Assembly (NCBI GenBank): GCA_965223295.1
Contig: CBDCWC010000003.1
Coordinates: forward strand, 1,632,001 to 1,696,000
DNA length: 64,000 nucleotides
Origin: Nitrospirales bacterium
GTDB lineage: Bacteria > Nitrospirota > Nitrospiria > Nitrospirales > UBA8639
Direction: 5' to 3'
Part shown: piece after piece, positions 20,642 to 47,214 of the stretch
How positions within the stretch are numbered: the first letter of the stretch is position 1
How the letters are laid out: each line of letters opens with the position of its first letter
Notes under the pieces: model-generated
The model's database searches: none
What the model was told of the DNA's origin: nothing
What the model saw: the letters and a program-made list of their open reading frames with translations, nothing else
Translations under genes and position numbers: made by a program

Positions 20642-20821
20642 GCCCGAATTTGTGGTACAACTTAGCAAGTTGCCAAGTCTAATCTTGACAGCCTGCGACC
20701 GATATCGGTATAAGGCCCAGTTTAGACTGGGCCTTGTTGTATCTTGAGCGTATTTCTTTTCGCAGTGTTTCCCCTTGAAAAATTTGCGTGGTCAAGTCTG
20801 AAGACCTAAAGGTATGTACGC

Positions 20822-22990
20822 ATGAAGTTGCTGAAGCAGTTATTCGTTCGGGTGACAGGAAACTTTTTTGGCACTGTTGTACCAAAGTTTCGTCCGCAAT
20901 CTGCTAGGAAGGCGACGCCCTCTCTAAAGCTGGTCTCTCATAATCCTCATCCGGTGGCGACTCCGGAAACTGCCTTGCAACGTAGCGCACAGCTTGGCCA
21001 TATGGAGTCGCTGGAATCAGCTCTAAAAAAAGGTGAACAATGGCTCCTGAATAGGCAGAATGCCGACCAAGGTTTTTGGGTTGAGGAATTAGAAGCGGAT
21101 ACAACGCTGACATCGGACTATGTCATGCTTCGCAGGTTTCTGGGTTTGGTGGATCCTGAACGAGAACGAAAATTAGTCCGTTATCTCCTGCATATGCAAC
21201 TTGATGACGGTGGATGGCCGATTTATGCTGGAGGCTCTGGTGATACCAGTGCGACCGTCAGGGCATATTTTGCTCTAAAATTGTCCGGTGTCAGTGCTGA
21301 TGAACCCGTGATGCAGCGAGCTAAGGAGCTCATTTTACAGAGAGGGGGTGTCGCGCAAGCGAACGTTTTCACAAAAATAATATTGGCCTTGTTTGGCCAG
21401 TATGATTGGCGTGGACTCCCATGTATGCCACCTGAGATTTTTCTGGCCCCACAATGGTTTTATTTTAATCTGTATGCCGTATCCTATTGGTCTCGTGCGG
21501 TCATTATTCCACTTCTCATTGTCTTTGCCCATCGTCCGCTCTGTGCGATTCCTCGTGAGCAGGGAATTGAGGAGCTTTTTGTCAAACCTTTGGGTTCAGA
21601 AGATTTTTCGCAAGTGCCACCCCTGCACCGTGATTCGACATTTCTTAGTTGGCGAAATTTCTTTGTGTGGGTAGATAGTCTTCTTCGGCTCTATGAGTCC
21701 TATCCAATCAAATCTCTCAGAAAGAAAGCGTTGAAAGAGGCAGAGCGTTGGATGATTGATCGTATGGATGGCGAAGGTGGGCTTGGAGCCATCTTTCCTG
21801 CGATGGCCTATTCGATCTTTGCCCTGAGGTCGCTTGGGTATGCCACAGACCATCCGCTCATTCAGAAAGCTCTAGATGAAATTGAGCAGCTCGAGGTCTA
21901 TTCAAATTCTACAAATAGTTCTGCACCTGGCATGTTGCATATGCAACCTTGCCATTCTCCGGTTTGGGATACGGCTTTAACCATGCACGCGTTGATTGAA
22001 AGTGGTATCCCCCTCAATCATATGGCCCTAACAAAGGCCGATGCTTGGCTTCGATCTCGGCAAACTCAAAAGGTGGGTGACTGGGTTGTATCGTCACCTG
22101 AAGCAAAGCCAGGGGGATGGAGCTTTCAATATGAAAACGATTGGTATCCAGATGTAGATGATACGGCTGCGGTGATCACGGCTATGGCGAAAATTCATCA
22201 AGCTGAAACGCCTGACTTTGATGAAGAGCTGCAACGTGCGTTTCGATGGGCATTGGCGATGCAAGGATCGGATGGGGGTTGGGGTGCCTACGATAAAGAT
22301 AATAATAAACTCATTTTCAATAAAATTCCTTTTGCTGACCATCAAGCCTTGTTGGACCCCAGTACGGCAGATTTGACTGGGCGCTGTTTGGAAATGTTAG
22401 GTACCTTAGGCTATGACCAGTCTCATCCGGCTGTTGGTCCTGCTCTTGATTTTTTGCGTATGGAGCAAGAACCCAATGGCAGTTGGTACGGGCGCTGGGG
22501 TGTGAATTATATTTACGGAACATGGTGTGTGCTCTCTGGCCTGCGGGCCATTGGCGTAGATATGACGGCACCATGGATTCAAAAATCTGTCTCCTGGCTC
22601 GAATCCGTTCAGAATTCTGACGGAGGTTGGGGCGAGTCTTGTGAATCCTATGCTGATGTCGAGACGGCAGGTCAGGGAGAGAGTGCCGCGTCACAAACGG
22701 CTTGGGCGCTTATGGCCTTGCTTCAGGCCGGTGAGGCCGACTCTTTAAGTGTGGTTCGCGGAGTGAACTGGCTTATTCGCCATCAGCGTGAAGATGGAGT
22801 CTGGGACGAACCGTTTCACACTGGTACGGGTTTCCCTCGGGTTTTTTATCTGCGATATCATGGCTATTTTAAGTATTTCCCCATTTGGGCCTTAGGTATG
22901 TACCGAAATGTCAAAGTGACTGGTGAAGCCAGAGCCGATCAATTGCGCAAAAAGGCCCAAATTTCAAGACAGCAACGCAAATTGCGGTAA
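20822..22990 (+). CDS. shc: squalene-hopene cyclase
   Basis: Catalytic DVDDTA motif; QW repeats (QLDDGGW, QGSDGGW, QNSDGGWGE, QREDGVW); GTGFPRVFYLRY. Confidence 0.97.
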   Translation: MKLLKQLFVRVTGNFFGTVVPKFRPQSARKATPSLKLVSHNPHPVATPETALQRSAQLGHMESLESALKKGEQWLLNRQNADQGFWVEELEADTTLTSDYVMLRRFLGLVDPERERKLVRYLLHMQLDDGGWPIYAGGSGDTSATVRAYFALKLSGVSADEPVMQRAKELILQRGGVAQANVFTKIILALFGQYDWRGLPCMPPEIFLAPQWFYFNLYAVSYWSRAVIIPLLIVFAHRPLCAIPREQGIEELFVKPLGSEDFSQVPPLHRDSTFLSWRNFFVWVDSLLRLYESYPIKSLRKKALKEAERWMIDRMDGEGGLGAIFPAMAYSIFALRSLGYATDHPLIQKALDEIEQLEVYSNSTNSSAPGMLHMQPCHSPVWDTALTMHALIESGIPLNHMALTKADAWLRSRQTQKVGDWVVSSPEAKPGGWSFQYENDWYPDVDDTAAVITAMAKIHQAETPDFDEELQRAFRWALAMQGSDGGWGAYDKDNNKLIFNKIPFADHQALLDPSTADLTGRCLEMLGTLGYDQSHPAVGPALDFLRMEQEPNGSWYGRWGVNYIYGTWCVLSGLRAIGVDMTAPWIQKSVSWLESVQNSDGGWGESCESYADVETAGQGESAASQTAWALMALLQAGEADSLSVVRGVNWLIRHQREDGVWDEPFHTGTGFPRVFYLRYHGYFKYFPIWALGMYRNVKVTGEARADQLRKKAQISRQQRKLR

Positions 22991-23062
22991 GTCTTCACTC
23001 TATTTTTCAGATTTTTCCTCTAGAAATGACAGCAGGAGCCGATTCTGACCAGAATCGCGATA

Positions 23063-23836
23063 GTGACGGCATCCAGAATAGAATTTCATGCCGTTGTCCG
23101 TGCTCTTCCAGTTACTCACTCCGTTCCCCACGATGGACATCGTGCCATAACCTATAATGGGCAAGGGCTCCATGTTCTCGTGATTCAGTCAGGTATAGGA
23201 CCCGTTAAAGCCCGCATCGGTACCCAACGACTACTTGATGCTCAATCATGGGATGTCTTAATCTCTGCAGGTTTTGCTGGCGGCCTCGATGACACTGCCG
23301 CTATCGGCTCCGTATTGATTGGGCAAGAAGTTTTTGAGACCTCTTTTTCCCCTCACTCCCTTCCGTCGCGACCAATCATGTGCCATTCTGATTGGGTCAA
23401 AACGGCCTCGACTGTTCCTTGGCATGGGCACGGGGTTTTACGGATTGGAAAATTTACATGTGTGGATCGTGTGCTCACTCATTCAGCAGAGAAGTATTCA
23501 ATAGGGATTCGGTCGGGGGCGGTGGCGGTGGATATGGAAAGTGCGGCCATTGGGCAAATCGCTCAAGATAATGATTTGCCATTTTTGATTGTGCGGGCCA
23601 TTTCAGATGGCGTCAATGATGATTTGCCGGTAGACTTTAATCTTTTTCTGGCGCCATCAGGCTGGGTGGCTGGAGTGACGCGCATCTTATCGACACCGAA
23701 GTCATGGAAAGGCTTCTTGAATTTGTACCGGCATTCGAAGCAAGCCTCTCAACAGCTCACCTTATTTTTTGAAGCCTTTTTCTTTACGGTTTCGACTATG
23801 CCAGAATCTTCAGCTTCTTTACTGAACAAGTCATAG
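23063..23836 (+). CDS. hpnG: hopanoid-associated nucleoside phosphorylase (PNP/MTAN fold)
   Basis: SGIGP, SAGFAGGL, AVDMESAA, RAISD; directly downstream of shc. Confidence 0.75.
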   Translation: MTASRIEFHAVVRALPVTHSVPHDGHRAITYNGQGLHVLVIQSGIGPVKARIGTQRLLDAQSWDVLISAGFAGGLDDTAAIGSVLIGQEVFETSFSPHSLPSRPIMCHSDWVKTASTVPWHGHGVLRIGKFTCVDRVLTHSAEKYSIGIRSGAVAVDMESAAIGQIAQDNDLPFLIVRAISDGVNDDLPVDFNLFLAPSGWVAGVTRILSTPKSWKGFLNLYRHSKQASQQLTLFFEAFFFTVSTMPESSASLLNKS

Positions 23837-23839
23837 CCT

Positions 23840-24607
23840 ATGAACATGATTCAAGCACTAGGAGCCCGAGTCATCGCTCAGATTGAAGAAATGGGAGCCA
23901 TGTTGCTGTTTCTGTTGCGATCCTTTGGGTGGCTATTGCGACCGCCGTTGCGATTGCATCAAATCGTTAAGCAAATTCATTTTATAGGCTTTAAGTCGAC
24001 ATTTGTGGTTATTTTGACTGCTCTGTTTACCGGGATGGTTTTAGCGCTACAAGGGTACTATTCCTTGAGAAAATTTGGATCTGAAGGCCTATTGGGGTCC
24101 GCTGTGGCGTTGAGTATGATACGAGAATTAGGCCCAGTGCTGGCCTCGCTGATGGTTACAGCCCGGGCTGGATCGGCCATGACGGCAGAAATTGGTATCA
24201 TGCGAATTACGGAGCAAATTGATGCATTGGAAACCATGGCCGTCAATTCTCTTCAATATCTCATTACACCGAAAATGGTGGCGGCACTGATTTCTGTTCC
24301 GCTTCTTGTGGCCCTATTTGATGTTGTGGGAATCGGTGGGGGTTATGTTGTGGGCGTGAGGTTGTTGGGAGTGAGCGGAGGAGCATATTGGAGTTCAATT
24401 GAATCGGCTGTGGTGTGGAAAGATGTCTATGGGGGAATATTAAAGTCAATTAGTTTTGGCCTGATTATCAGTTGGGTCTGTTGTTATAAAGGCTATTATA
24501 CGAGAATGAGTGCAGAAGGACTGGGAAAAGCCACGACAGAGTCTGTCGTTCTGGCTTCAGTCCTTATTTTAGTCTGGGATTATTTTTTAACTTCAGTTCT
24601 CCTGTAA
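23840..24607 (+). CDS. mlaE: MlaE-family ABC lipid permease
   Basis: IRELGPVL, ARAGSAMTAEIGIMRITEQIDALE. Confidence 0.93.
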   Translation: MNMIQALGARVIAQIEEMGAMLLFLLRSFGWLLRPPLRLHQIVKQIHFIGFKSTFVVILTALFTGMVLALQGYYSLRKFGSEGLLGSAVALSMIRELGPVLASLMVTARAGSAMTAEIGIMRITEQIDALETMAVNSLQYLITPKMVAALISVPLLVALFDVVGIGGGYVVGVRLLGVSGGAYWSSIESAVVWKDVYGGILKSISFGLIISWVCCYKGYYTRMSAEGLGKATTESVVLASVLILVWDYFLTSVLL

Positions 24608-24617
24608 AAACCAACAG

Positions 24618-24773
24618 GGGAGTGTTGAATAATACAACGCACCAGAGGCAAATTTGCACATGATCATATAGGATGCCAACAGCTTCGGGTCGGTTGAAAA
24701 AAGTTCGCTCGCCTGCGCGAAGCCGCTTCGACGAAGGCAGGGAACGCCGCTGGTGGATTTTTTCAACATGCCC
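24618..24773 (+). mobile_element. MITE-like repeat, copy C (internally shortened)
   Basis: Ends GGGAGTGTTGAATAA / TTTTTCAACATGCCC; flanked by CAACA(G/T); internal end at 24687. Confidence 0.8.
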
Positions 24774-24777
24774 CAAC

Positions 24778-25542
24778 ATGATTGATATGGATTCGTCGCG
24801 TACTATTCAGTTGAAGGATGTTGAAAAAACGCTTGGGGGCCAACCTGTTCTGCAAGGTGTGGATTTAGGCATTCCCAAGGGAGAGATTACCACTATCATC
24901 GGCCCAAGTGGTGAAGGAAAAAGCGTGTTGTTAAAACACATGATTGGGTTGATGCGTCCCGACCATGGGCAAGTGTTGGTGGATGGGGTGGATTTGACCA
25001 AAATTCATGATCAAGAATTGCATGAAATTCGAAAGAAATTTGCCATGTTATTTCAGTCTGCTGCCCTATTTGATTCGATGAATGTGTTTGATAATGTTGC
25101 CTTTCCTTTGCGAGAGAAACGATTGGTCTCGGAATCTGAAGTACAGCAGGCTGTGCAGGAGATGTTAGAACAGGTGGGATTGGGGGAAATGGGCCACAAG
25201 TTTCCTGCTGAGCTGAGTGGCGGGATGAAAAAACGCGCCGGCTTGGCCAGGGCGTTAGTGATGGGCCCAGAAATCATTTTGTTTGATGAGCCGACGACGG
25301 GGTTAGATCCGCTAATGGCCCATGCTATTCATGATTTGATTTTAGCCATGCATAAGACTTTTGAATTTACGGGGATTATGGTCAGTCATGAAATTCCTAA
25401 AATCTTTCCCATTTCTGATTGGGTCGCTATGCTGAAGAATGGTAAAATCCTTGCCATGGAGCGCTCGGCCGAATTTCAACGATTGTCAGATCCTTTGATC
25501 CGTGAATTTATTTCAATTCCGAATGCTGTGCCCACACGATAA
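24778..25542 (+). CDS. mlaF: MlaF-family ABC ATP-binding protein
   Basis: GPSGEGKS, LSGGMKKR, DEPTTGLDP. Start placed after the MITE (24778 or 24787). Confidence 0.92.
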   Translation: MIDMDSSRTIQLKDVEKTLGGQPVLQGVDLGIPKGEITTIIGPSGEGKSVLLKHMIGLMRPDHGQVLVDGVDLTKIHDQELHEIRKKFAMLFQSAALFDSMNVFDNVAFPLREKRLVSESEVQQAVQEMLEQVGLGEMGHKFPAELSGGMKKRAGLARALVMGPEIILFDEPTTGLDPLMAHAIHDLILAMHKTFEFTGIMVSHEIPKIFPISDWVAMLKNGKILAMERSAEFQRLSDPLIREFISIPNAVPTR

Positions 25543-25640
25543 GTTGAAAGTTTTGTATGATAACATGAGGGGGGGCTTGATGCTTCTTTCATGTCATGGA
25601 GGCCAATGACAAACCAATTCTCTTTTCTGGGACTGCTATC

Positions 25641-26084
25641 ATGGAACGTGGCAAGCTAGAGTTCGTCGTTGGGCTATTTGTGCTTGTGGGAATTCTTTGC
25701 CTTGGGTATCTGGCGATCAAATTGGGAAAATTGGAATTAGTCGGTGGAGATTATTATGAGCTCACGGCTGATTTTTCTTCGAGTTCTGGCTTGAAAAAAG
25801 GCGCGTCTGTTGAAATTGCAGGCGTGGAAGTTGGTCGTGTGAAGTCTATTGTTTTAAAAGAAGATCAAGCTCAGGTCGTCGTGGCGATTGAAGATGGGAT
25901 TACGGTGTATGATGATGCGATTGCCTCCATTAAGACGCGTGGCATTATTGGGGAAAAATTTTTGGGTCTTTCTCCAGGAGGAGCTGGGGAGCCCTTATCA
26001 AAGGGAGGAACCATTATGGACACCGAATCTGGGATAGATTTGGAACAAGTCATTAGCCAATTTATCCATGGTAACGTTGAATAA
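25641..26084 (+). CDS. mlaD: MlaD/MCE-domain protein
   Basis: N-terminal TM helix; GLKKGASVEIAGVEVGRV; TRGIIGEKF. Confidence 0.93.
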   Translation: MERGKLEFVVGLFVLVGILCLGYLAIKLGKLELVGGDYYELTADFSSSSGLKKGASVEIAGVEVGRVKSIVLKEDQAQVVVAIEDGITVYDDAIASIKTRGIIGEKFLGLSPGGAGEPLSKGGTIMDTESGIDLEQVISQFIHGNVE

Positions 26085-26108
26085 AGTGTCTTAATCCTTG
26101 GAGGGGGT

Positions 26109-26795
26109 ATGGCAATATTAGGAGCTATGACGGTCAGAACAATTCAAAGGGTTAGGGATCAATTAGGGCAAATGAGGGAAGGGGCGTATAGACGTCCGTC
26201 TATAGTAGTTTGGGCTTGTGTCGTTATCTTCTGCCTTTGTTTGCCTTTGGCGTGGGCCGCGAGTGGTCCAACGGAAGCCGTGAAAGAGACGATCGACCAA
26301 GTTTTGTCTGTTCTTGGGGATGAAGACTTGAAAGCCCCAGGGCGAGAGGTCGAGCGTCGAGAGAAATTGGAGGCGATTATTGGGCAGCGATTTGATTATG
26401 AAGAAATGGCCAAACGCACTCTTGCGGCTAAATGGAAAAAATTAAGCACTGAAACCCAGCAAGAATTTGTTGGCCTATTTCAGCAATTTTTATCTCAATC
26501 CTATGCTGGGAATATCGATGGGTATTCTGGAGAGCAAGTGGAATATCTGAAGGAACGGTTGAAAGGCAAGTTTGCCGAAGTGCAGACAAAAGTTGTTTCA
26601 TCGAAAGTTCAGATTCCCCTGGATTATCGCCTTCTCAAGAAAAATGAGAAATGGGGAGTCTATGATGTGATTATTGACGGAGTCAGTTTGACAAAAAATT
26701 ATCGAGGACAATTTTCCAGAATTATCAAATCTTCTTCATTCGAAGGGTTACTCGACAAGCTTCGTTCGAAGTCTGACCTTGCCGCTTCTTCGTAG
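26109..26795 (+). CDS. mlaC: MlaC/Ttg2D/HpnM-family periplasmic lipid-binding protein
   Basis: FDYEEMAKRTL and WGVYDVIIDGVSLTKNYRGQF. Confidence 0.88.
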   Translation: MAILGAMTVRTIQRVRDQLGQMREGAYRRPSIVVWACVVIFCLCLPLAWAASGPTEAVKETIDQVLSVLGDEDLKAPGREVERREKLEAIIGQRFDYEEMAKRTLAAKWKKLSTETQQEFVGLFQQFLSQSYAGNIDGYSGEQVEYLKERLKGKFAEVQTKVVSSKVQIPLDYRLLKKNEKWGVYDVIIDGVSLTKNYRGQFSRIIKSSSFEGLLDKLRSKSDLAASS

Positions 26796-26804
26796 GGAAC
26801 TCGT

Positions 26805-28019
26805 TTGATGGTGCTTTTCCGTGCCTCGTGCTGGGCGGCGGTGGTCTGCCTGGCGTTAGCGGGAAGTATCATTCCCTCCATCGCCTCCGCTGAAAAATCA
26901 TTTTTTGTCGTTCCAGCGATTTCCACCTCCAAAAACGACGGGAGAGACTTTGGGATCATTGTGCCTGTGTTGGATTCAGATGAGGAAGGCAATCTCCGCT
27001 CAGTCTTGGCTCCCATGCTTATTCATAACTCATTTTTGGGACTCAGGGGGACACTAAACTACTTTCAATATTGGTCAGGTGGAAAACGATTAAAAGCGGT
27101 GGGTTCGTATACGGAAGAGATTGAACGTAAATTTAAGTTACGCTATCAAGACCCAGGGTTTATCGAGGGTTTGTTTTTCGTAGATATTGGAGCGCAGTTT
27201 TTTAAAAATGCCACAAGACGATTTTTTGGCTTAGGCCAAATTACCCCGGAGTCCAATGAATCTAACTATACTGGGCGTGAAATTCTGGTCCATTGGAATT
27301 TTGGGATTCATCTCAATGATGTGACCCGGCTGTCGGTGAATCAACGATTTCGGGATGTGCAAATTCAGCCTGGAGGTGTTGATGATGAACCGTTTTCCCA
27401 AGACGAGTTTTCCAATACACCTGGAATCGATGGTGCGACAATTTTGGCCCATCGGTTAGTTTTTCAATATGATTCTCGGGATAACCTTATTGCTCCTACG
27501 GCAGGTACGCGGGTTGAAGCGTTTGGAGAGTTGGCACAGAATTTTGACCGAAGAGAGATCATTGATGACCAATTCTATTTTCGTTATGGCGTGGATGCCA
27601 GACGGTTTTTCCCTAGTCCGTCAAAGCGGTATATTTTCTTAGTTCGAGGGCGATTACAACTAAGTTTTGGAGATGGCATTCCTTTTTTTGAACAAAGTTC
27701 GTTGGGAGGAGAAAATAACCTGCGAGGTTATGGTCAAGATCGGTTTATTGATAAGCACATGGTTGTGTTCAATGTAGAGGAGCGTATTCATCTCTTACAG
27801 GTCAAGATATTGAATGTCAATGTGGAGTTTGAGTTCACTCCCTTTGTGGATATGGGTCGTACCTATCAAGACTTTTCTTTCCGGCAATTTAACGAATGGG
27901 AGGTCACGCCGGGGGTGGGGTTCCGTGGCATTGTGCGGCCAAACTTAGTTAGCCGCGTTGATTGGGGATATAGCCGGGAAGGCGGGGCGATCTTTGCTGG
28001 GTTGGATTATCCCTTTTGA
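26805..28019 (+). CDS. Omp85 (BamA/TamA-like) outer-membrane beta-barrel without POTRA domains
   Basis: Signal peptide; YDSRD; LGG...LRGY lid motif; FVDMG; C-terminal Phe (LDYPF); only 404 aa. Confidence 0.8.
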   Translation: MMVLFRASCWAAVVCLALAGSIIPSIASAEKSFFVVPAISTSKNDGRDFGIIVPVLDSDEEGNLRSVLAPMLIHNSFLGLRGTLNYFQYWSGGKRLKAVGSYTEEIERKFKLRYQDPGFIEGLFFVDIGAQFFKNATRRFFGLGQITPESNESNYTGREILVHWNFGIHLNDVTRLSVNQRFRDVQIQPGGVDDEPFSQDEFSNTPGIDGATILAHRLVFQYDSRDNLIAPTAGTRVEAFGELAQNFDRREIIDDQFYFRYGVDARRFFPSPSKRYIFLVRGRLQLSFGDGIPFFEQSSLGGENNLRGYGQDRFIDKHMVVFNVEERIHLLQVKILNVNVEFEFTPFVDMGRTYQDFSFRQFNEWEVTPGVGFRGIVRPNLVSRVDWGYSREGGAIFAGLDYPF

Positions 28020-28051
28020 AGCGTGATGCTATTGTCGGATTGTTGATTGTC

Positions 28052-28789
28052 ATGAAAAAAGTGGTTTTTGCTCTATTGTATGTTTTTATTGTTCCCATCT
28101 TCGGATGGCCTCTTTGGAGTGTTGGAGGAGAACTCACAGAGCCAGATACGGCAGAGGGTGTGGTCCAAGAGCTTAAGCAGCTCGTGTCTGAGGGTAAAGC
28201 GAAATCTAATGACCCCGAAGAGTTACGGCATTTGGCTCATCTGTATTTGGATGTCGGCTATGGGTTGTATGTTGATCGAGAGAAACAAATAGCCTCTCTT
28301 CAAGAGGGAGCTCGATTGGCCAAAAAAGCTCTGGAGTTGGATGAATCTTCGGCGACGGGGCATTTTCTGTTTGCAGCTAATTTTGGTAAGGCCGCTCAAT
28401 TGGAAGGCTGGGTGGCCGCAATACGTGCCTTAGGGACATTACAGTATCATGCGAATCGAGTTTTGGAAATTGATGAAAATCATGTGTTGGGGAACTATAT
28501 GTTAGGGGCCATGTATGAGAAACTGCCGTGGTTTTTAGGAGGGGACTCAGAGAAGGCAGGCGAGTATCTCAAAAAAACCATTTCTCTTGATGCTCGGTAT
28601 GCTCCTGCGCACTTGGATCTTGGGAAATGGTACTTAAAACAAGGACAGACTTTGGAGGCGAAAAAAGAATTCATGCAGGTCCTTCATACACCTCCCCGTG
28701 AGAAACAATGGATTTGGAAGCGTATTCATCGACCCGAAGCAGAAGAGTTATTGCAACAAATTGGTGTTTCTAATTCCCAGACTCCATAA
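28052..28789 (+). CDS. secreted TPR-like protein, TatT/BstC-like
   Basis: Signal peptide; helical repeats; LGAMYEKLPWFLGGDSEKA motif. Confidence 0.65.
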   Translation: MKKVVFALLYVFIVPIFGWPLWSVGGELTEPDTAEGVVQELKQLVSEGKAKSNDPEELRHLAHLYLDVGYGLYVDREKQIASLQEGARLAKKALELDESSATGHFLFAANFGKAAQLEGWVAAIRALGTLQYHANRVLEIDENHVLGNYMLGAMYEKLPWFLGGDSEKAGEYLKKTISLDARYAPAHLDLGKWYLKQGQTLEAKKEFMQVLHTPPREKQWIWKRIHRPEAEELLQQIGVSNSQTP

Positions 28790-28915
28790 AGGGGAAAAGC
28801 CCAAGCCATCACACATTCTCTTCACTCATTTGTCATCCACGAAACAGGATAGTCGGTGGCAAGAGAGTGAAGCGCCTCTTACTCAGTATTTCACCGGCTT
28901 TCTATCACGAATATT

Positions 28916-31570
28916 ATGACCTCCTCATCTGATTGGTTACTACGAGCACTTGGCCGGCTAGCTGATTTTGTAAAGCATTGGGCCTGGTGGGTCCTAGCGT
29001 TGGCCATTTTTGTGACAGCCATTTCCTTGTCTTATGCGTTCATGTATTTAGGGATCAATACGAATACCACCGAGATGCTGGCTGCTGACGTACCCATTCA
29101 AGAAGCGCGCGAACATTATAGGCAAATTTTTCCTCAGAACACGGACTCTATTGTTCTGGTTGTTGAGGCTCGTACGCCGGAGATGGCCCATGCTGCTGTC
29201 AACACGCTTGATAGCATATTAAGGACTATGCCAGACCACATTAAGTCAGTTTATACACCATTCGGAGGATCATTTTTTGAAAAAAATGCTCTGTTCTATC
29301 TTAATGTTGCCGAACTTGAACATCTTTCGGAATCAGTGTCGACGTTACAACCCTTTATTAAAGAGTTGATGCAACAGCGGAATGTCTATGGGCTGTTTAC
29401 TCTCTTAGCAGATCACTATGATCGACTGCAGTGGGAGCAGGAACCCCTTCTGTTTGGGCTTTTTCAAAGAATGGCAGAAGGCATTCAGTCGAGTCTGATT
29501 GGCTTGGACTATGTGTTAGCCTGGCATTCCGTCCTACTGAAGCCAGATCGTCAAACGTCACAGACACGGCGGTTCATTTTGTTGCAACCTTATCTGGATT
29601 ATCAAAAGATGCTGCCAGCCGAAACTGCGCTTCAGGCTGTTCGTGATGTCATTCAAGAGTCGGGTGTGTCAAACATTCCGGGAGTCAGGGTCCGGTTAAC
29701 GGGAGAAGTGGCACTGGCGCATGAAGAGCTTCAGGTTGTTAGCCAGCGTGCAGGGATTGCCGCCGTTCTGTCTCTGATCATGGTCTGTCTCACTTTGACG
29801 CTGACCTTTCATTCATGGCGATTTATGATGATCACCTTGTTAACGCTGATAGTAGGGCTGGCCTTAAGTGCAGGATTTGCCACGGTCGTTGTTGGCCAAT
29901 TGAATATCCTATCCTTAGCTTTTGCGGTCCTCTTTATTGGGTTAGCGGTAGATTATGCGATTCATCTGAGTCTCCGGTACCAGGACCTTCTTACTTTGGG
30001 GAACGAGCCGTTTTTGGCCATGAGAAAGAGTCTGCAAGAAATTGGTCCGGCCTTACTGTTGTGCGCGGTGACCACCGGACTTGGCTTCTACACCTTCGTT
30101 CCAACAAATTACACCGGCATGTCGGAATTAGGATTGATATCAGGAACGAGTATGTTCATCGGGCTGGCCGTGTCACTGACGGTCTTGCCAGCTCTGTTCT
30201 TGGTCTTCCCCTTATCCAAAAAGGATTGTCGTTCCTCTTCTTCTCGCCGGGGCTTGGATGCTGTCTATCAATTTCCCATCCGTCATGGACAGGCCATTCG
30301 ATGGGGAACGGCTGTAATGTTTTTTGGCACTGTCCTCTTACTTCCTCAGGCTTCGTTTGATTGGAATCCTCACAATATACGTGATCCCAATGTCGAATCT
30401 GTTCAAACGATGGATGATCTTCTGGAGGACAAAAACGGAGGGACCTGGCCCCTGACTCTTTTGACCTCTGCGGACGAGATCGATGATGCCGTTTCCCGAC
30501 TGGAAGCCTTGAAATCCGTCGATAAGGTGGTGACGATCAATAATTTTATCCCGACAGATCAATTCGAAAAATTTGTGCTGCTCGCAGGGCTCGCGGATAG
30601 CATGCTACCTCAAGGGCTTGATACGAAGGTCTCAATTTCTCCAGACACTGATACCTCTCTTAATGCGATCCAATCCTTTTTGAGGAACCTAGAAGAATAT
30701 ATTCGGAAAGCAGAGTTGAGTCCTGAGCATTCTGCAGTCCATCTTAGGGATGCGCTGAAAAGTTTTGTTGAGAAGTTGAACGCTAGTGATAACGAAGTAC
30801 AGAAGAATCTGCTTGATCGTGTAGACCACAGTTTGTTGGGGTCTTTTCCGAATGACCAAACATCTGAGCAAGCGATTGCGATGCCGATGGGGCTCATCAC
30901 TCAGAAAGACCTGCCGCAAGAATTAGTTGAACGTTGGGTTGGTTCGAATGAAACGTACCGTCTGGAAGTCTATCCTAAAAAGGATTTGAGGAATCTCAAA
31001 GCCTTAGAAGAGTTTGTGAGCGACGTTCGTCGCATTGCTCCGCAGGTCACCGGTTTGCCTGTCATCTATCTGGATGGTGGCAATGAAGTAGCTGGAGCGT
31101 TCATGCAGGCTTTTGTCTCTGCACTGCTGGTGATAACGATTATCTTGGCGCTTGTCCTTCGAAATATTTGGGATATTCTATTAGTGATTCTTCCTTTGAG
31201 TCTAGCCGCACTCTGTCTGGTAGGGTATACGGTTATTTTTGACATGCCCTTCAACTATGCCAATGTGATTGCGCTTCCATTAATTTTTGGGCTTGGAGCA
31301 GATAGCGGTATTCATATTGTCGAGCGAATGCGAAGAAAGACAGAAGCCTGTGAAACATTTCTGCGGTCCGGGACCATCCGGGGAGTGTTTTTTAGCAGTG
31401 TGACAACCATGCTGAGTTTCAGCAATCTGGCTTATACGTCGCATGTGGGCATCGCCAGCATGGGACAATTGTTAAGCCTAGGGATTTTACTGACATTGAT
31501 TGGGTGTTTGGTGGTATTGCCTGCATTTCTCTATCGTGGCCAGCCGAAAGCGTCAGATATGGCTACCTAG
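28916..31570 (+). CDS. hpnN: hopanoid RND/MMPL transporter
   Basis: Two MMPL repeats: FAVLFIGLAVDYAIH and NYANVIALPLIFGLGADSGIH; LTGEVALAHEEL; lies in the shc cluster. Confidence 0.9.
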   Translation: MTSSSDWLLRALGRLADFVKHWAWWVLALAIFVTAISLSYAFMYLGINTNTTEMLAADVPIQEAREHYRQIFPQNTDSIVLVVEARTPEMAHAAVNTLDSILRTMPDHIKSVYTPFGGSFFEKNALFYLNVAELEHLSESVSTLQPFIKELMQQRNVYGLFTLLADHYDRLQWEQEPLLFGLFQRMAEGIQSSLIGLDYVLAWHSVLLKPDRQTSQTRRFILLQPYLDYQKMLPAETALQAVRDVIQESGVSNIPGVRVRLTGEVALAHEELQVVSQRAGIAAVLSLIMVCLTLTLTFHSWRFMMITLLTLIVGLALSAGFATVVVGQLNILSLAFAVLFIGLAVDYAIHLSLRYQDLLTLGNEPFLAMRKSLQEIGPALLLCAVTTGLGFYTFVPTNYTGMSELGLISGTSMFIGLAVSLTVLPALFLVFPLSKKDCRSSSSRRGLDAVYQFPIRHGQAIRWGTAVMFFGTVLLLPQASFDWNPHNIRDPNVESVQTMDDLLEDKNGGTWPLTLLTSADEIDDAVSRLEALKSVDKVVTINNFIPTDQFEKFVLLAGLADSMLPQGLDTKVSISPDTDTSLNAIQSFLRNLEEYIRKAELSPEHSAVHLRDALKSFVEKLNASDNEVQKNLLDRVDHSLLGSFPNDQTSEQAIAMPMGLITQKDLPQELVERWVGSNETYRLEVYPKKDLRNLKALEEFVSDVRRIAPQVTGLPVIYLDGGNEVAGAFMQAFVSALLVITIILALVLRNIWDILLVILPLSLAALCLVGYTVIFDMPFNYANVIALPLIFGLGADSGIHIVERMRRKTEACETFLRSGTIRGVFFSSVTTMLSFSNLAYTSHVGIASMGQLLSLGILLTLIGCLVVLPAFLYRGQPKASDMAT

Positions 31571-31685: not shown

Positions 31686-33320
31686 TTGTCCGCATCTAGC
31701 TCGCTCTTAACCCCGGCAGCAACGGTTCGAACATTTCGGCCGGTAAATGTTCGGCGTATACTCTGTGTGTTTCCAGCCTATACCAAAGCCTTTGGTACGT
31801 TTGACCATGCCTTTCCTCTTATGGGGCCGGTGAAGGCCTTTATGCCGCCACAAGGGATTCTTCTCATTGCCGCGTTGGTGCCCCAAGAATGGGAAGTCCA
31901 GTTTATTGATGAGAACATTCGTCCAGCTCGAGACAGTGAGTTGGCCTGGGCTGATGCTGTCCTGATATCGGGTATGCATATCCAACGTCATCAAATCCAT
32001 GACATTGCGCGCCGGGCTCATCTGGCAGGTAAGGTGACAGTGTTAGGGGGTCCATCAGTTTCTGCCGCGCCTGAACAATATGAAGATATTGATTGTTTGC
32101 ATTGCGGGGAAGTAGGGGATGCGACGCTGGACTTGTTCCGCCGGATTGATGAAACACCGGCACGTCCCGAGCAGCAACTGATCTTTCGAACAGTTGATCG
32201 GCTTCCGATGACAGATTTTCCGACTCCAGCCTATCGTCTGATAAACATCCGTCAGTATCTGCTCGGCAGTGTGCAGTATTCCAGTGGTTGTCCTTTTACT
32301 TGTGAATTTTGTGATATCCCTGCGCTGTATGGAAGAAATCCAAGACTGAAGACACCACAGCAAATTTTGACAGAACTGGATGAACTGGCCGATGGAGGGA
32401 CGCCTTCCATTTATTTCGTGGATGACAATTTTATTGCCAATCCCCGAGCCGCGCGTGAACTGTTGCCATATCTGGTGGAATGGCAGAAGTGCCGGGATTA
32501 TACGGTTCGCCTCTCCTGTGAACTCACGTTCAATGTGGTGGAATATCCCGATATTCTAGAGCTCATGCGTGAGGCGTTTATGACCAATATCTTTATTGGC
32601 ATCGAGACTGTGGACCCGGATGCGTTGCGAGCCATGAGTAAAAGGCAAAACGTTCGTACGCCCATGCTTGAAGCCGTGGACACGGTGAATAGTTACGGAA
32701 TCGAAATCGCTGCGGGCATTATCATTGGGTTGGATACAGATACGCCTGAGACCACTGACGCGATTATCGAATTTATTAAGGTTTCTCAGATTCCCATTGT
32801 GACACCGAACTTGCTAGTGGCTTTGCCGCATACCCCGCTCTACGAACGTCTTGAAAAAGCTAATCGCCTCAATTCGGGAGAAGGACGTGACTCGAACGTC
32901 GAGTACTTGCAACCGTATGATGAGGTCGTCGCAAATTGGAAGCGTGTCATTCGTGAAGCGTATGAACCACGAAATATCTACGCTCGCTATGCGGCGCAAG
33001 CCGAAAGAACGTATGTGCATCGGAAGCGGCCGACGCGTCCCTTGGATCAGTTGACGTGGGCGAATCTGCGTCGAGCGGTCGAAATTTTTGCGCGTACGGC
33101 TTGGCAAGTGGGTATTTGTAGCGATTATCGAAAAGAATTTTGGACCATGACCCGGCGAGAGTTAAAAGAGGGTAATGTTGAGTCAGTGTTCCAAATCGCG
33201 ATGGTAGCTCACCATTTGATCACCTTCGGGCGGGAATGTCTTACTCGCGATGTGCAAGCCTCAGCTTATTCAGCTCGTGGGAGAGATCTCAGTTTGTCCT
33301 ACGGCATCATTGTTCCGTAA
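31686..33320 (+). CDS. hpnP: hopanoid C-2 methylase (B12-binding radical SAM)
   Basis: RRILCVFP.YTK.FGTF, AFMPPQG, WADAV.ISGMHIQR, GSVQYSSGCPFTCEFCDIP.LYGRNPRLKTP, VAHHLI. By recall these segments closely match alphaproteobacterial HpnP. Confidence 0.88.
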   Translation: MSASSSLLTPAATVRTFRPVNVRRILCVFPAYTKAFGTFDHAFPLMGPVKAFMPPQGILLIAALVPQEWEVQFIDENIRPARDSELAWADAVLISGMHIQRHQIHDIARRAHLAGKVTVLGGPSVSAAPEQYEDIDCLHCGEVGDATLDLFRRIDETPARPEQQLIFRTVDRLPMTDFPTPAYRLINIRQYLLGSVQYSSGCPFTCEFCDIPALYGRNPRLKTPQQILTELDELADGGTPSIYFVDDNFIANPRAARELLPYLVEWQKCRDYTVRLSCELTFNVVEYPDILELMREAFMTNIFIGIETVDPDALRAMSKRQNVRTPMLEAVDTVNSYGIEIAAGIIIGLDTDTPETTDAIIEFIKVSQIPIVTPNLLVALPHTPLYERLEKANRLNSGEGRDSNVEYLQPYDEVVANWKRVIREAYEPRNIYARYAAQAERTYVHRKRPTRPLDQLTWANLRRAVEIFARTAWQVGICSDYRKEFWTMTRRELKEGNVESVFQIAMVAHHLITFGRECLTRDVQASAYSARGRDLSLSYGIIVP

Positions 33321-36871: not shown

Positions 36872-37888
36872 ATGGGTGTTCCTCTTTCGCAAATGTACAC
36901 GGTATCGCAATATGCGCTATCGAAGCATCTTCGTGGCATCAAGCGATATCCGCTCGTGTTAATGCTCGAACCCTTGTTTCGATGTAATTTGGAATGTGCC
37001 GGATGTGGGAAGATCCAATATCCTGATCATATTCTGAACAGACGTTTGACGCCTGAGCAATGTTGGACGGCGGCAGATGAATGTGGAGCGCCAATTGTGA
37101 GCATTCCTGGAGGTGAGCCTCTCATTCATCCAGAAATGCCAGCTATTGTCGAAGGCCTTGTGCAGCGGAAAAAATATGTTTATTTGTGTACGAACGCCAT
37201 TCTTTTAGAACGAAAAATTCAAGACTATATGCCATCAAAGTACCTGACCTTCAGTATTCATATGGATGGGCTGAAAGAAGAGCATGACCATGCTGTCTGC
37301 CGGGATGGCGTCTATGATGTAGCGGTGAAGGCGATTCGCGTTGCATTAGCCAAGGGTTTTCGAGTGACGACCAATACAACGCTGTTTGATGATGCCGAGC
37401 CATCTCGTGTTCGTCGATTCTTTGATGAAATGATGGAGTTGGGGGTGGAAGGCATGATGATTTCGCCTGGGTACAGTTACGATAAAGCCCCTGATCAGCA
37501 AAGCTTTCTGAAGCGGAATCGCACGCGGTCATTGTTTTCCCAATTGCTTACGCAACGTAAGCGAACCTGGCAGTTTAATCAGTCGCCGCTTTTTCTCGAG
37601 TTTCTCATGGGGAAGCGGGATTATGACTGCACGCCATGGGGAAATCCCACCTACAATATCTTTGGCTGGCAGCGTCCCTGTTACTTATTGCAAGAAGGAT
37701 ATGTTTCGACGTTTCGAGAACTCATGGAAGAAACAGAATGGGAGCGCTATGGGACTGGACGGCACGAGCAATGCCGGGACTGTATGGTGCATTGTGGCTA
37801 CGAAGCGTCGGCGGTCAAAGATACCTTTGGGTCTTGGAGTGGATTCTTCGGAACCGTTAGGGCCACGCTCTTCCCTAATGCAGTGTAG
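36872..37888 (+). CDS. hpnH: adenosyl-hopene transferase (radical SAM)
   Basis: YPLVLMLEPLFRCNLECAGCGKI, SIPGGEPL, CTPWGNPT, CMVHCGYE. Confidence 0.95.
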   Translation: MGVPLSQMYTVSQYALSKHLRGIKRYPLVLMLEPLFRCNLECAGCGKIQYPDHILNRRLTPEQCWTAADECGAPIVSIPGGEPLIHPEMPAIVEGLVQRKKYVYLCTNAILLERKIQDYMPSKYLTFSIHMDGLKEEHDHAVCRDGVYDVAVKAIRVALAKGFRVTTNTTLFDDAEPSRVRRFFDEMMELGVEGMMISPGYSYDKAPDQQSFLKRNRTRSLFSQLLTQRKRTWQFNQSPLFLEFLMGKRDYDCTPWGNPTYNIFGWQRPCYLLQEGYVSTFRELMEETEWERYGTGRHEQCRDCMVHCGYEASAVKDTFGSWSGFFGTVRATLFPNAV

Positions 37889-38307: not shown

Positions 38308-38450
38308 TCTTTTTCAGCTGTCTTCGTGGTTCCTCCCTCCTTTCTACAAGATTTTTTTATATTTCCGATATCCCACAATTCACCAATCCCTTTGGAAATG
38401 TTGCTACTCGAAAAATAGACATTTTCCGGGCAATTGAGTCTTTCACTAAA

Positions 38451-38674
38451 TGGCCTGTTGAAAAAAGCCGCCAGCGGCGTTCCCTGCCTTCGCCGGAGCG
38501 GCTTCGCGCAGGCAGGTCGACATTGTTCCGTGCTCACGTAGGACCAGGACGCTCCGTGCGCAAAAATGGCTGAGGCCTTGCTGGACGCCATTTTTGAAAA
38601 GCCCTGATGCTGTTGATGGCCAACCGCTTCCGGGCGAAATATGGCCCTTGATATCCTCATTATTCAACACTCCA
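38451..38674 (-). mobile_element. MITE-like repeat, copy D (inverted)
   Basis: Ends TGGCCTGTTGAAAAA / TTATTCAACACTCCA; flanked by CTAAA (38446-38450, 38675-38679); internal end at 38604. Confidence 0.85.
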
Positions 38675-39070
38675 CTAAACGTAGGATTCGATTGACGGTC
38701 GCCGCTTGTCTGTGATAGAAAACCAGGTCTTTTTTGAGGGTCAAAAGACCTAGAAAATGAAAGAAGATCAAAGTAATTAAAGGAAGAGGTCCCATTTGAG
38801 TTATTGAAAAAGTAGTCAATTAACAGATATGGCCTAGACCGTCGAGGATAAAATCAGTTCCCGTCCTCTTTTATCTTTTCCTCGAATGTTCCCCGCCGGT
38901 TTAGGAAAAAGCCTTTTTTGGAACTCCACTAAGAGAAATAAAAAGTCTTCAGAAGGGGATAACATAGGAAGTGTAGTCCTCGAGGAAGTGGCAAGGTTGT
39001 TGGTAACAGTTGAGAAAAAGCAGGAAGCTGAATAGGGTTGTATTAGGAATCACGTACACGAGGGGGAACA

Positions 39071-39622
39071 ATGAACGAATACCGAAATCTTCGAAGCTTG
39101 TTTGTCATGGGGTTAGCAGTTGTGGCGATGTCCTTATCGGCTTGTGGCGGTGGCGGCGAAGGTCCACCCAAGCCCCCACCGCCTGCTCCGCCTGAATATG
39201 CAGACAAGCATATGCCGGACGGCTATTGGAACAATCCAGACATCATTGCAGAGGGAAAAGCCATTTATACTGGGCAGCATAACATTGATGTGAACTGTGC
39301 CAGTTGTCATGGAAAAAACGGGAAGCCCGTTAAGGCAGGTGCCAGAGATTTTCGCCGAACTGAGCAAATGGAGTTGTATTCTGACGCGGTATGGTTTTGG
39401 CGAGTCAGCGAAGGAGTGAAAGGCACCAAGATGAAAGCTTGGAAGAGCAAGCTTTCTGAAGAGGAAATTTGGAAAGTGATCGCCTTTGAATCAACATTTG
39501 GTCTTAGTGGCAAGGAATATGATGTCGCTGCAAAAAAATGGGTGGCGGCTGGGACGGCAGGATCGGCTCCCGCAGCAGACGCACCTTCGGCTGAAGCGCC
39601 CGAAGGTGATGCTGCTCATTAA
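39071..39622 (+). CDS. monoheme cytochrome c lipoprotein
   Basis: Lipobox LSAC; CASCH; distal Met (TKMKAW). Confidence 0.92.
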   Translation: MNEYRNLRSLFVMGLAVVAMSLSACGGGGEGPPKPPPPAPPEYADKHMPDGYWNNPDIIAEGKAIYTGQHNIDVNCASCHGKNGKPVKAGARDFRRTEQMELYSDAVWFWRVSEGVKGTKMKAWKSKLSEEEIWKVIAFESTFGLSGKEYDVAAKKWVAAGTAGSAPAADAPSAEAPEGDAAH

Positions 39623-39680
39623 TAACGCCAAAACCTAAATCTCAGGAATCGGAAGAACGTCAAAAGGAGGGGTACGACCC

Positions 39681-41366: not shown

Positions 41367-41422
41367 CTGCTTGTCTTGATTGTGAGGGGTAGAGAGAACG
41401 AATTTCGAAGAAAAGGAATTGT

Positions 41423-42232
41423 ATGGCTAATCAAAGCTTCATGAAAAGTGTTCTGAAAAAAACAGTCATCGGAATTATCATTGGAGTCATTTTAGTTGTT
41501 GTGGCTCAGATGACGCATTTTCCGCATGTCTTTCAGGTGATGTTCTTCATCTATGCCATGCTTGGAACACTCGTGTTCATCCTGTTGGATGCACCTCCGA
41601 TGACACGATTAGAAGGGATGAAGGCTTTGGGGGCGTTGGTAGTTTTTTATCTCCTCCTTTCTGGAATGTATATCGCTGGGGCTTCAATTCTTCCTCAATT
41701 TGACCCCGCTATTGAAGCAGGAAAAATCGAAAAACTTTTGAAAGCCCGCAGAGCTAGGACGGAGCAGGGTAAGGCCGATGAGCTCATTGCCCGAGCAAAA
41801 GAGCTGGATGAGAGAGCCAAGGCTATTTCCAAGCAGCTGGCATCATTGGGTGGTGCGGCTCAACAAGTTGAAGTAGTCGAAGAGAAGAGTGGAGGTGGAG
41901 CGGCTTCTGGTGATCTTATTGCGCTTGGCAAGGAACAATGGGAGCTGCAGGAATGTTATAACTGTCATAAATTATTTGGTTCTGGCGGGAAAAAGCGAGG
42001 GCCCGTCCTTGATAATATTGGCAATCTGATGACTCCAGAAGCTCTTCGAGACAAGATTTTGAACCCAAAAAGTTGGATGGCAGAAGGCTTTGAGAAGCAA
42101 TATAAGAAGGGGAAGATGCCAGATAAATATCGTGATCTGATGTTTGAAGAAGAAGTCGATGCACTGGTGGCATTCTTGGCATCGTTAAAGGATGCCTCAG
42201 TGGAAACGCCAAAGCCAATTAAGATGAATTAG
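41423..42232 (+). CDS. membrane-anchored cytochrome c
   Basis: Three TM helices, a coiled segment, CYNCH and GKMP. Confidence 0.9.
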   Translation: MANQSFMKSVLKKTVIGIIIGVILVVVAQMTHFPHVFQVMFFIYAMLGTLVFILLDAPPMTRLEGMKALGALVVFYLLLSGMYIAGASILPQFDPAIEAGKIEKLLKARRARTEQGKADELIARAKELDERAKAISKQLASLGGAAQQVEVVEEKSGGGAASGDLIALGKEQWELQECYNCHKLFGSGGKKRGPVLDNIGNLMTPEALRDKILNPKSWMAEGFEKQYKKGKMPDKYRDLMFEEEVDALVAFLASLKDASVETPKPIKMN

Positions 42233-42249
42233 GGAAATCGCAGGATTTT

Positions 42250-43194: not shown

Positions 43195-43229
43195 GAGCAG
43201 TACTCTTTTCATTCAAGGAATTTTCCTTC

Positions 43230-44342: not shown

Positions 44343-44348
44343 GCGCTC

Positions 44349-47208: not shown

Positions 47209-47214
47209 GGCATC

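Follow-up and report, generated by a model that had tools for sequence, protein, structure and literature searches.

We analysed a 64,000-nucleotide stretch of the genome of a Nitrospirales bacterium (GenBank assembly GCA_965223295.1, contig CBDCWC010000003.1; G000:C3:1632001-1696000 in our notation), hereafter the window; the genome comprises 3.78 Mb in three contigs. Between 20.8 and 37.9 kb of the window, the list of open reading frames (ORFs) and family profile matches define thirteen genes on the + strand, in the order shc, hpnG-like, mlaE, mlaF, mlaD, mlaC, a gene for an Omp85 outer-membrane barrel, a gene for a TPR protein, hpnN, a gene for a B12-binding radical SAM protein, dxs, ispG and hpnH. 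Our preferred reading, held with slightly better than even confidence, is that this region is the core of a Nitrospirales hopanoid (bacteriohopanepolyol) cluster, and that its barrel is the outer-membrane end of a delivery route standing in for the HpnN-HpnM-HpnS system. The row is probably not one fixed machine, and a modular picture fits the data better. Among the gene products of the row, the barrel shows the closest tie to hopanoid genes, and this observation is robust.

Co-occurrence of the barrel with shc and HpnN

Co-occurrence was analysed within the phylum Nitrospirota, in 121 evenly drawn genomes that are at least 80% complete, with six queries and thresholds of E <= 1e-20 for the barrel and E <= 1e-60 for HpnN. 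The barrel was found in 48/121 genomes and shc in 58/121. All but one of the 48 barrel-positive genomes have shc, the exception being G057 (91% complete, 390 contigs); conversely, this is the only one of the 63 shc-negative genomes in which a barrel was found. Barrel-positive genomes belong to families f2 (15/15), f6 (10/10), f13 (18/20), f9 (3/23) and f20 (1/1), together with the genome of the window. In genus g46, two genomes have both barrel and shc and two have neither.

HpnN was detected in 11 of the 121 genomes, all of them shc-positive: that of the window, six of genus g2 (same family as the window), three of genus g22 of f9, and G045. The 58 shc-positive genomes are distributed as 46 with the barrel only, 10 with HpnN only, one with both (that of the window) and one with neither (G099, 83% complete). 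HpnN was therefore not found in 46 of the 47 genomes of this sample that have both barrel and shc. In the HpnN-only genomes of g2 and g22, hpnN lies beside an MlaA-like and an MlaC-like gene, which is the triad of the HpnN-HpnM-HpnS module proposed for proteobacteria.

A second sample consisted of 41 genomes of the window's own family, seven of which, including the genome of the window itself, were shared with the first. All 41 have shc, 20 have the barrel and 27 have HpnN: 13 barrel only, 20 HpnN only, seven both and one neither (78% complete). Five of the seven genomes with both belong to the genus of the window, the other two being metagenome-assembled genomes with 7-8% contamination. By genus, the barrel is present in five and HpnN alone in eight. 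Hence, among hopanoid producers the barrel and HpnN are near-complementary, and this distribution is our main reason to see the barrel as acting in hopanoid localisation rather than as a mere neighbour of hopanoid genes.

Conservation of the gene row in related loci

With a 13-sequence barrel alignment, 80 loci were retrieved from contigs representing one genome per species (barrel identity 49-91%). They are labelled Nitrospirales, Nitrospiraceae or Nitrospirota in 79 cases and Nitrospinota in one. The row recurs, whole or in part, in 80/80 loci, far more than chance would give. Counting for each gene the loci with enough flanking DNA (for shc, at least 7 kb upstream), mlaC lies immediately 5' of the barrel in 70/72, mlaE, mlaF and mlaD stand together in 50/61, shc is present in 52/53 and dxs in 64/64; the hpnG-like gene comes after shc in related loci too. 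Of the 11 loci in which mlaEFD is incomplete or missing, most retain hpnG-mlaC-barrel-TPR, and in all five such cases checked MlaE is encoded elsewhere in the genome. From these counts, the conserved core is shc-hpnG-(mlaEFD)-mlaC-barrel ... dxs-ispG-hpnH, while the TPR gene is clade-specific.

A first-pass annotation of the window, made from its letters, had read the genes from mlaE to hpnN as a candidate hopanoid export machine and had proposed several checks on it, of which two bear on gene distribution. Conservation of the neighbourhood is borne out by the shc and mlaC counts given above. The other check, whether homologues are common in genomes without shc, gives a divided answer: the barrel occurs in one of 63 such genomes, but MlaC in every genome sampled from three shc-negative families.

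In Nitrospiraceae, the slot 3' of the barrel holds a DUF3187 or DUF1207 protein gene in place of the TPR gene (L064:11194-12222, L040:11191-12222, L067:11242-12429, L080:11128-12288). The DUF3187 protein is also weakly similar to the MetA-phenol-degradation family, and both types end in an aromatic residue; they are presumably outer-membrane proteins.

Barrel genes in other lineages and distant homologues

The barrel was found within hopanoid clusters of four further lineages, with differing gene orders. In family f13 the order is hpnI-like glycosyltransferase, B12-binding radical SAM protein (hpnJ), ispH, hpnA-like epimerase, barrel, hpnG-like and shc; genes for a TolC-like protein and a small TPR protein lie close by. 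In f9 (genera g46 and g55) the barrel stands between an hpnG-like gene and the segment shc-hpnA-like...hpnH. In f6 it heads a second hopanoid-type cluster, composed of barrel, ispH, B12-binding radical SAM protein (hpnJ), TPR, hpnI-like glycosyltransferase and a PagL-like gene. The fourth case comprises two metagenome loci (L173, L196) in which shc, hpnH and hpnI lie near a more distant barrel. As the barrel recurs in hopanoid clusters of differing order, simple inherited synteny is insufficient to explain its position. A hopanoid cluster of Leptospirillum ferriphilum is also on record for which the accessible text names 'Omp85' among the domains, without comment (PMC12654047).

Some features of these clusters should be recorded here. 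In the f6 genome G012, mlaE-mlaF-mlaD-TolC-like-mlaC directly adjoins B12-binding radical SAM-hpnH-shc-hpnG, apart from the barrel cluster, and this layout agrees with where MlaC, MlaE and shc match in six further f6 genomes. The G012 gene between mlaD and mlaC encodes a TolC-like outer-membrane factor (PF02321, L150:10565-12043), and another gene of this family (OEP) lies near shc in f13 (L116:15323-16765). The f6 barrel cluster ends with the PagL-like gene, for a lipid A 3-O-deacylase (L118:4979-5716, L119:15340-16095), which hints at coupled lipid A remodelling.

The two metagenome loci come from a set of 80 with distant barrels, obtained with an alignment headed by a Planctomycetota sequence (28-38% identity, and 54% for one partial match). 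Other contexts examined in this set include FlhA with a radical SAM protein, a histidine kinase with an MsbA-like ABC exporter and an LPG-synthase-type membrane protein, among others. A maximum-likelihood tree built from 50 barrels recovers every hopanoid-linked group as monophyletic. Protein cluster look-ups widened the taxonomy little: apart from Nitrospirota, they gave one Planctomycetota, one Elusimicrobiota and one cluster labelled Myxococcota.

The gene cluster of the window

The features of the cluster are the following, with positions given in the window.

20710..20737 (+): terminator-like hairpin with a 12-bp stem, between a UDP-glucose dehydrogenase gene and shc; pattern match only
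20822..22990 (+): shc, squalene-hopene cyclase; TIGR01507 766 bits (cut-off 431), PF13243, PF13249
23063..23836 (+): hpnG-like nucleoside phosphorylase/hydrolase; PF01048 88.6 bits, TIGR03468 (HpnG) 115 bits, below the cut-off of 187
23840..24607 (+): mlaE, ABC permease; PF02405 277 bits, TIGR00056 264.6 bits (cut-off 212)
24673..25542 (+): mlaF, ABC ATPase; PF00005, best NCBIfam match MlaF NF008809 at 213 bits, below the cut-off of 441
25596..26084 (+): mlaD, single MCE domain with an N-terminal membrane helix; TIGR04430 137.3 bits (cut-off 135), PF02470
26109..26795 (+): mlaC, periplasmic lipid carrier; PF05494 167.8 bits (cut-off 26)
26805..28019 (+): noNterm (POTRA-less) Omp85 outer-membrane barrel; PF01103 64.3 bits (cut-off 24)
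28016..28789 (+): TPR protein with TatT/BstC fold by predicted structure; PF16811 21.7 bits, below the cut-off of 26.5
28916..31570 (+): hpnN, RND-type hopanoid exporter; TIGR03480 862.1 bits (cut-off 751.85)
31686..33320 (+): B12-binding radical SAM protein with DUF4070; PF02310, PF04055, PF13282
33542..36631 (+): dxs and ispG, methylerythritol phosphate pathway genes
36872..37888 (+): hpnH, adenosyl-hopene transferase, end of the cluster; TIGR03470 548 bits (cut-off 225)

The ORF list and the profile matches agree with the first-pass annotation on the positions, strand and domains of the nine genes from shc to hpnN. They also agree on the tight spacing, since the gaps from hpnG to the TPR gene are of 3, 65, 53, 24, 9 and -4 bp; the gap before hpnN is wider (126 bp). 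The true start of mlaF is probably some 35 codons inside the annotated ORF. The hairpin is likely the upstream boundary of the transcription unit, and 5' of it lie the housekeeping genes hisS and dnaB and genes for a large TPR protein, a pilin and UDP-glucose dehydrogenase. When the region was scanned for promoter and terminator patterns, site counts were not above those of shuffled sequence.

Contig C1 (64,829 bp) is collinear with C3:1630307-1715373 at 87-95% DNA identity, its barrel protein being 99% identical, and lacks about 18 kb corresponding to C3:1684375-1702338 (window position 52375 onward). The simplest explanation is a strain variant that was co-assembled, and not a true duplication. 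Read in this way, the genome has one Mla row, MlaC included, and counts for the window's own genome are doubled for every gene of the window.

Two observations concern the DNA 3' of the cluster. A stretch of about 220 bp just 3' of hpnH (38450-38675) has at least a dozen further copies with 80-98% identity on C1, C2 and C3, and may be a small dispersed repeat or an element resembling a miniature inverted-repeat transposable element. Further on, genes for a cytochrome c, Rieske/cytochrome b and two cytochrome bd-like subunits I follow on the same strand (39071-50547).

The Omp85 barrel protein

The barrel protein has 404 amino acids. Its predicted structure (predicted local distance difference test, pLDDT, of 92.4) shows strands that begin at residue 30, immediately after a signal-peptide-like helix, and continue to the C-terminal ...DYPF; neither the structure model nor family profiles reveal a POTRA or any other periplasmic N-terminal domain. 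The description of the barrel as POTRA-less is thus upheld. Fold comparison gave the BamA and TamA barrels as the closest PDB folds. In extracellular loop 6 (ECL6), the motif LRGY (306-309) fits (L/M)RG(W/Y), and in strand beta-13 the motif FVDMG (347-351) fits FxDxG. Both are kept in alignments of 13 and 37 sequences, R307, F347 and G351 being invariant. The noNterm Omp85 subfamily was reportedly recognised by Heinz and Lithgow in 2014. According to the accessible text of a published account, these two are the lid-lock motifs of Omp85 proteins, those of the noNterm subfamily among them; that subfamily has paralogues in Leptospira and a poorly understood function (PMC11358297). On the NCBIfam model NF047779 (Omp85_fam) the window barrel scores 136.4 bits, below the cut-off of 200.

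Twelve long barrel homologues were scanned for a possible MlaC-Omp85 fusion, and none has an MlaC domain. QueG domains occur in two of them, probably through the merging of gene calls, and the others have unassigned N-termini.

The TPR protein

The TPR protein has 245-257 amino acids, the database form beginning at the 13th codon, and its predicted structure has a pLDDT of 87. Foldseek gave as top match BstC (7t1s), a bacterial sterol binder (TM 0.71/0.74). With VIA-align, the best entries were 8g52, a TPAT transporter component (Z 22.8), the TPR domain of PTPIP51 (Z 22.2), BstC 7t1s (Z 21.8) and TatT 3u64 (Z 21.0); five entries including TatT 4di3 separate at Z 20.8-22.8 from generic TPR proteins (Z <= 17.8). 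The protein has the closed helical-hairpin array of the TatT/BstC fold and not an open TPR superhelix, 207-216 residues being aligned at 3.0-3.5 Å. All four of these matches, TPAT, the PTPIP51 TPR domain, BstC and TatT, bind lipids or hydrophobic ligands, and the PTPIP51 domain transfers lipid.

The TatT-like character assigned to this protein in the first annotation holds by fold, its own PF16811 score remaining below the gathering threshold (21.7 against 26.5 bits). Many near homologues have a precomputed PF16811 match, and NCBI assigns some of them the name TatT family. A PDB sequence search with the TPR profile is dominated by designed TPR proteins and finds BstC at E 0.015. A distant homologue lies within the f6 hopanoid cluster (hhalign 93.5%, E 2.4e-7). 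From its hydrophobic N-terminal segment and its lack of cysteine, and hence of a lipobox, we read the protein as probably exported or membrane-anchored, not as a lipoprotein. No gene for TRAP transporter P or QM subunits or for a BstB-type protein is present among the 18 ORFs at 13.8-37.9 kb and the 12 ORFs at 38.0-50.5 kb.

HpnN and the radical SAM gene

The window HpnN passes the TIGR03480 cut-off and is encoded in a hopanoid cluster, as is characteristic of HpnN. It scores 593 bits on the stricter model NF052374 (cut-off 1100) and 150 bits on the NCBIfam BstA model (cut-off 1400). Its gene is flanked by the TPR gene and the radical SAM gene, and not by the partners of an HpnN-HpnM-HpnS triad. 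Among the related loci, hpnN occurs in 7/64, and it is found in five of the seven genomes of the window's own genus; hpnN and the radical SAM gene are co-present. The pair is an insertion limited to this genus, which therefore has the barrel module plus a later insertion of hpnN. These counts, with the phylum sample, remove HpnN as a standing member of the export system, the place that the first annotation had given it.

The radical SAM protein scores 61 bits on the HpnR and 47 bits on the HpnJ model, far under the cut-offs, and is a possible candidate for a hopanoid methylase. In genome G156 of the same genus (C49:105108-117966), a second, divergent shc (799 bits) adjoins hpnN, between the barrel and the remaining cluster, so that the inserted block can bring its own cyclase.

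The Mla genes

MlaE, MlaF and MlaD are encoded together in the window, MlaF being the best match of the ATPase though below the equivalog cut-off, and a periplasmic MlaC carrier (PF05494) is encoded with them. That neither mlaA nor a STAS (MlaB) gene lies within the cluster had been stated before and is correct, but the genome does encode one MlaA (PF04333, 215 bits) outside the cluster, with an AI-2E transporter gene and a sigma-70 gene on either side, and has 11 STAS_2 matches elsewhere, none assignable to Mla. MlaE is near-universal (115/121 Nitrospirota genomes). MlaA was found alongside the barrel in 15/15 sampled Nitrospiraceae, and in 0/10 genomes of f6 and 0/20 of f13. In E. coli, mlaA is likewise unlinked from mlaFEDCB. 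Since the window's genome has an mlaA elsewhere, as do the 15 Nitrospiraceae, its absence from the cluster is no proof of replacement. The earlier proposal that barrel and TPR protein replace MlaA is not supported by these findings, nor by the presence of the TPR gene in only 34 of 77 loci.

The double label 'mlaC/hpnM' given to the carrier gene has to be dropped as well. On the HpnM model TIGR03481, the window MlaC scores 101.2 bits (cut-off 160.1), within the range of MlaC from the shc-less families f14, f18 and f19 (76-109 bits); true HpnM genes adjoining hpnN, of which two of g2 and one of g22 were tested, reach 196-201 bits. HpnM identity was ruled out on this ground. Because MlaC of shc-less families scores alike, an 'HpnM-like' match is generic for the phylum, and by sequence the window MlaC is of the ordinary Nitrospirota type. 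MlaEFDC is encoded without shc in f14, f18 and f19, and MlaC in all sampled genomes of these three families. The Mla part may equally be an ordinary phospholipid system.

Links between Mla and hopanoid genes exist in f6, as described above, and in genus g2. The latter belongs to the window's own family and has streamlined genomes of 2.1-2.4 Mb; in G078 and G110 (L126 and L127) the locus reads shc-hpnG-mlaC-dxs-ispG-hpnH, with no barrel, and a separate triad of hpnN, MlaA-like gene and HpnM is present. MlaE was found in 0/6 sampled g2 genomes. From the locus order and this absence, an MlaC orthologue is retained beside shc where no MlaE was found.

A proposed delivery route

The data fit better with two alternative hopanoid-linked envelope modules in the phylum than with one machine: HpnN-HpnM-HpnS on the one hand, and on the other the noNterm Omp85 barrel with companions that differ by lineage (MlaFED-MlaC, the TatT/BstC-fold protein, DUF3187/DUF1207 proteins or TolC-like proteins). 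In the window, hopanoids might leave the inner membrane via HpnN, a late addition in the genus, via the MlaFED ABC complex, or via both. They would then cross the periplasm on the soluble carriers MlaC and the TatT/BstC-fold protein and enter the outer membrane at the barrel, perhaps by an Omp85-type lateral seam. We infer the substrate, the direction of transport and all protein contacts of this route. For a path from pump or ABC complex to carrier to barrel, BstC may serve by analogy as a precedent for the carrier. TamA-TamB provides the precedent of an Omp85 barrel as outer-membrane anchor of a lipid transport route. In its most specific form, the barrel might itself be the receptor or insertase for hopanoids in the outer membrane, on a second, HpnN-independent route fed by MlaFED/MlaC and/or the BstC-like carrier, and would then be the first Omp85 protein with a lipid cargo; this version we put forward only tentatively.

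Several observations weigh against the barrel as the outer-membrane end of a hopanoid route. With regard to its distribution, the genomes compared are relatives, so the independent replacements are perhaps two or three, and the counts ignore kinship; moreover, HpnN is an inner-membrane and the barrel an outer-membrane protein, so there can be no literal substitution of one for the other. In 78 of the 80 distant barrel loci, none of shc, hpnG, hpnH and hpnN lies within 10 kb, and in the 50-barrel tree the f9 barrels nest in a well-supported clade with barrels from non-hopanoid contexts. According to the accessible text of PMC11358297, every characterised Omp85 protein acts on proteins, not lipids. 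The putative carriers raise difficulties too. MlaC was found in 0/20 f13 genomes, yet the barrel stands beside shc there, so the barrel is independent of MlaC and the two are not an obligate pair. The cluster MlaC is the only one of the genome, as is MlaE if strain-variant contig C1 is left aside, and the single mlaA lies about 300 kb from the cluster (G000:C3:1333661-1334296); single copies of MlaE and MlaC imply that a housekeeping phospholipid role is required of them, if Mla is needed at all. The match of the MlaC scores to those of shc-less families points in the same direction. The TPR gene is 3' of the barrel in only 34/77 loci, and its profile finds homologues in 14/121 genomes, mostly Nitrospiraceae, away from the cluster.

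Much of this would be accommodated if MlaFEDC were an ordinary phospholipid (lipid-asymmetry) system with an unlinked MlaA, and barrel and TPR protein had a non-hopanoid function, all of them sharing an old 'membrane biogenesis' row. The generic MlaC score, the single MlaE and MlaC, the unlinked mlaA here and in all 15 sampled Nitrospiraceae, the occurrence of MlaEFDC in f14, f18 and f19 and the non-hopanoid contexts of distant barrels speak for it. We nevertheless regard it as unlikely, for it does not account for the presence of shc in 47/48 barrel genomes and of the barrel in a single shc-negative one, for barrels inside differently ordered hopanoid clusters in f13, f9, f6 and two metagenome loci, for the near-complementarity of barrel and HpnN, or for the MlaC kept beside shc-hpnG in g2, where no MlaE was found.

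Somewhat less probable still is that the barrel is an insertase or translocase for proteins of a hopanoid-rich outer membrane, such as the DUF3187/DUF1207 proteins, being co-regulated with hopanoid genes and not carrying lipid. The conserved LRGY and FxDxG motifs, the BamA and TamA barrels as top fold matches, the protein substrates of known Omp85 members (PMC11358297, as above) and the predicted outer-membrane protein encoded next to the barrel in Nitrospiraceae are all in keeping with it. However, no candidate substrate is conserved beside the barrel, whose neighbour is TPR in marine Nitrospirales, ispH in f6 and hpnA in f13, and near-complementarity with the lipid-handling HpnN-HpnM-HpnS would be left unexplained.

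The strict form of the first-pass annotation, in which MlaFED, MlaC, barrel, TPR protein and HpnN are one dedicated hopanoid exporter with barrel and TPR protein in place of MlaA, appears improbable: the single strand and tight spacing from hpnG to the TPR gene, the BstC/TatT-like fold and the f6 genomes, where MlaA is found in 0/10 yet barrel and shc-linked mlaEFDC are present, favour it, but hpnN (7/64 loci, and not found in 46/47 barrel and shc genomes), the TPR gene (34/77), mlaEFD (missing from the cluster in 11/61 loci) and MlaC (not found in f13) differ among loci, so that the parts vary independently, and mlaA coexists with the barrel here and in the sampled Nitrospiraceae. What stands of that proposal is the stable embedding of envelope genes in a hopanoid/isoprenoid cluster, the co-occurrence of barrel and shc and the BstC fold; HpnN, TPR protein and MlaC as fixed members do not stand.

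Comparison with known systems

Lawrence, Pan, Ollikainen and Belin have proposed that HpnN-HpnM-HpnS traffics hopanoids to the outer membrane; in the main text of that report, HpnN alone has an experimental tie to outer-membrane delivery of hopanoids, the partners HpnM, HpnS and HpnT having been proposed computationally in 2025 (10.1101/2025.07.29.667474). The window resembles that system in that Mla-type envelope proteins are encoded beside shc and hpnN. It differs in that its hpnN has neither an HpnM-grade MlaC nor an MlaA-like gene beside it; what the window does encode is the complete ABC complex MlaFED together with an ordinary MlaC, to which an Omp85 barrel and a protein of TatT fold are added. 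The main text of Lawrence et al. makes no mention of MlaD, MlaE, Omp85, TPR or Nitrospir-, although its supplementary tables could list such neighbours (10.1101/2025.07.29.667474).

In Methylococcus capsulatus, BstA-BstB-BstC form a sterol transport system, and according to the accessible text BstC, which belongs to PF16811 and has its gene near that of the HpnN-like pump BstA, binds 4-methylsterols (Zhai et al., eLife 2024, PMC10942540). The likeness lies in an HpnN-like RND pump encoded next to an all-helical TatT-family (PF16811) protein whose hydrophobic cavity accommodates a polycyclic triterpenoid (PMC10942540, same text); the window TPR protein aligns with BstC 7t1s over 207 residues at an rmsd of 3.0 Å (Z 21.8). 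Unlike Bst, the window cluster has no BstB-type periplasmic binding protein, and its Omp85 barrel and Mla genes have no counterpart there; in sequence the TPR protein is only marginally similar to BstC (profile E 0.015), and the lipid is presumed to be a hopanoid, not a sterol.

The E. coli Mla system (MlaFEDB, MlaC, MlaA-OmpC/F) shares with the window MlaE, MlaF, MlaD and MlaC in one row and one MlaA in the genome, whereas the window row has no STAS protein (MlaB), lies within a hopanoid cluster and leads into an Omp85 barrel gene. TamA, in contrast to the window barrel, has POTRA domains and the partner TamB, and no AsmA/TamB-like gene is present in the window cluster. With noNterm Omp85 proteins the barrel shares the absence of POTRA or other periplasmic domains and the conserved ECL6 and beta-13 lid-lock motifs; it differs in that its clade is tied to shc by neighbourhood and co-occurrence, a link to lipid genes that the accessible accounts of published members do not give.

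As far as the accessible texts go, the Mla-like idea for hopanoids, a TatT-like sterol binder and an Omp85 protein in a hopanoid cluster (without interpretation) are already in print. In the literature on hopanoids with HpnM, Omp85, Nitrospira or Mla, we did not find the link between noNterm Omp85 and shc, which the supplements of Lawrence et al. could hold, the complementarity of noNterm Omp85 with HpnN-HpnM-HpnS, or a full MlaFED row inside hopanoid clusters.

Significance

The locus and its relatives offer an outer-membrane candidate, the noNterm Omp85 barrel, and a BstC-like carrier candidate for hopanoid delivery. Should our reading prove wrong, a clear case of a conserved supercluster of hopanoid and Mla genes would remain, its Mla part probably being ordinary. 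If it is right, an orphan Omp85 subfamily would gain a function, and the cargo of Omp85 proteins would widen from protein to lipid. The barrel route, and not HpnN-HpnM-HpnS, would then serve the majority of hopanoid producers among Nitrospirota, Nitrospira and Leptospirillum-type lineages included, which would explain how major environmental hopanoid producers, namely nitrite oxidisers and iron oxidisers, build their outer membrane without HpnN.

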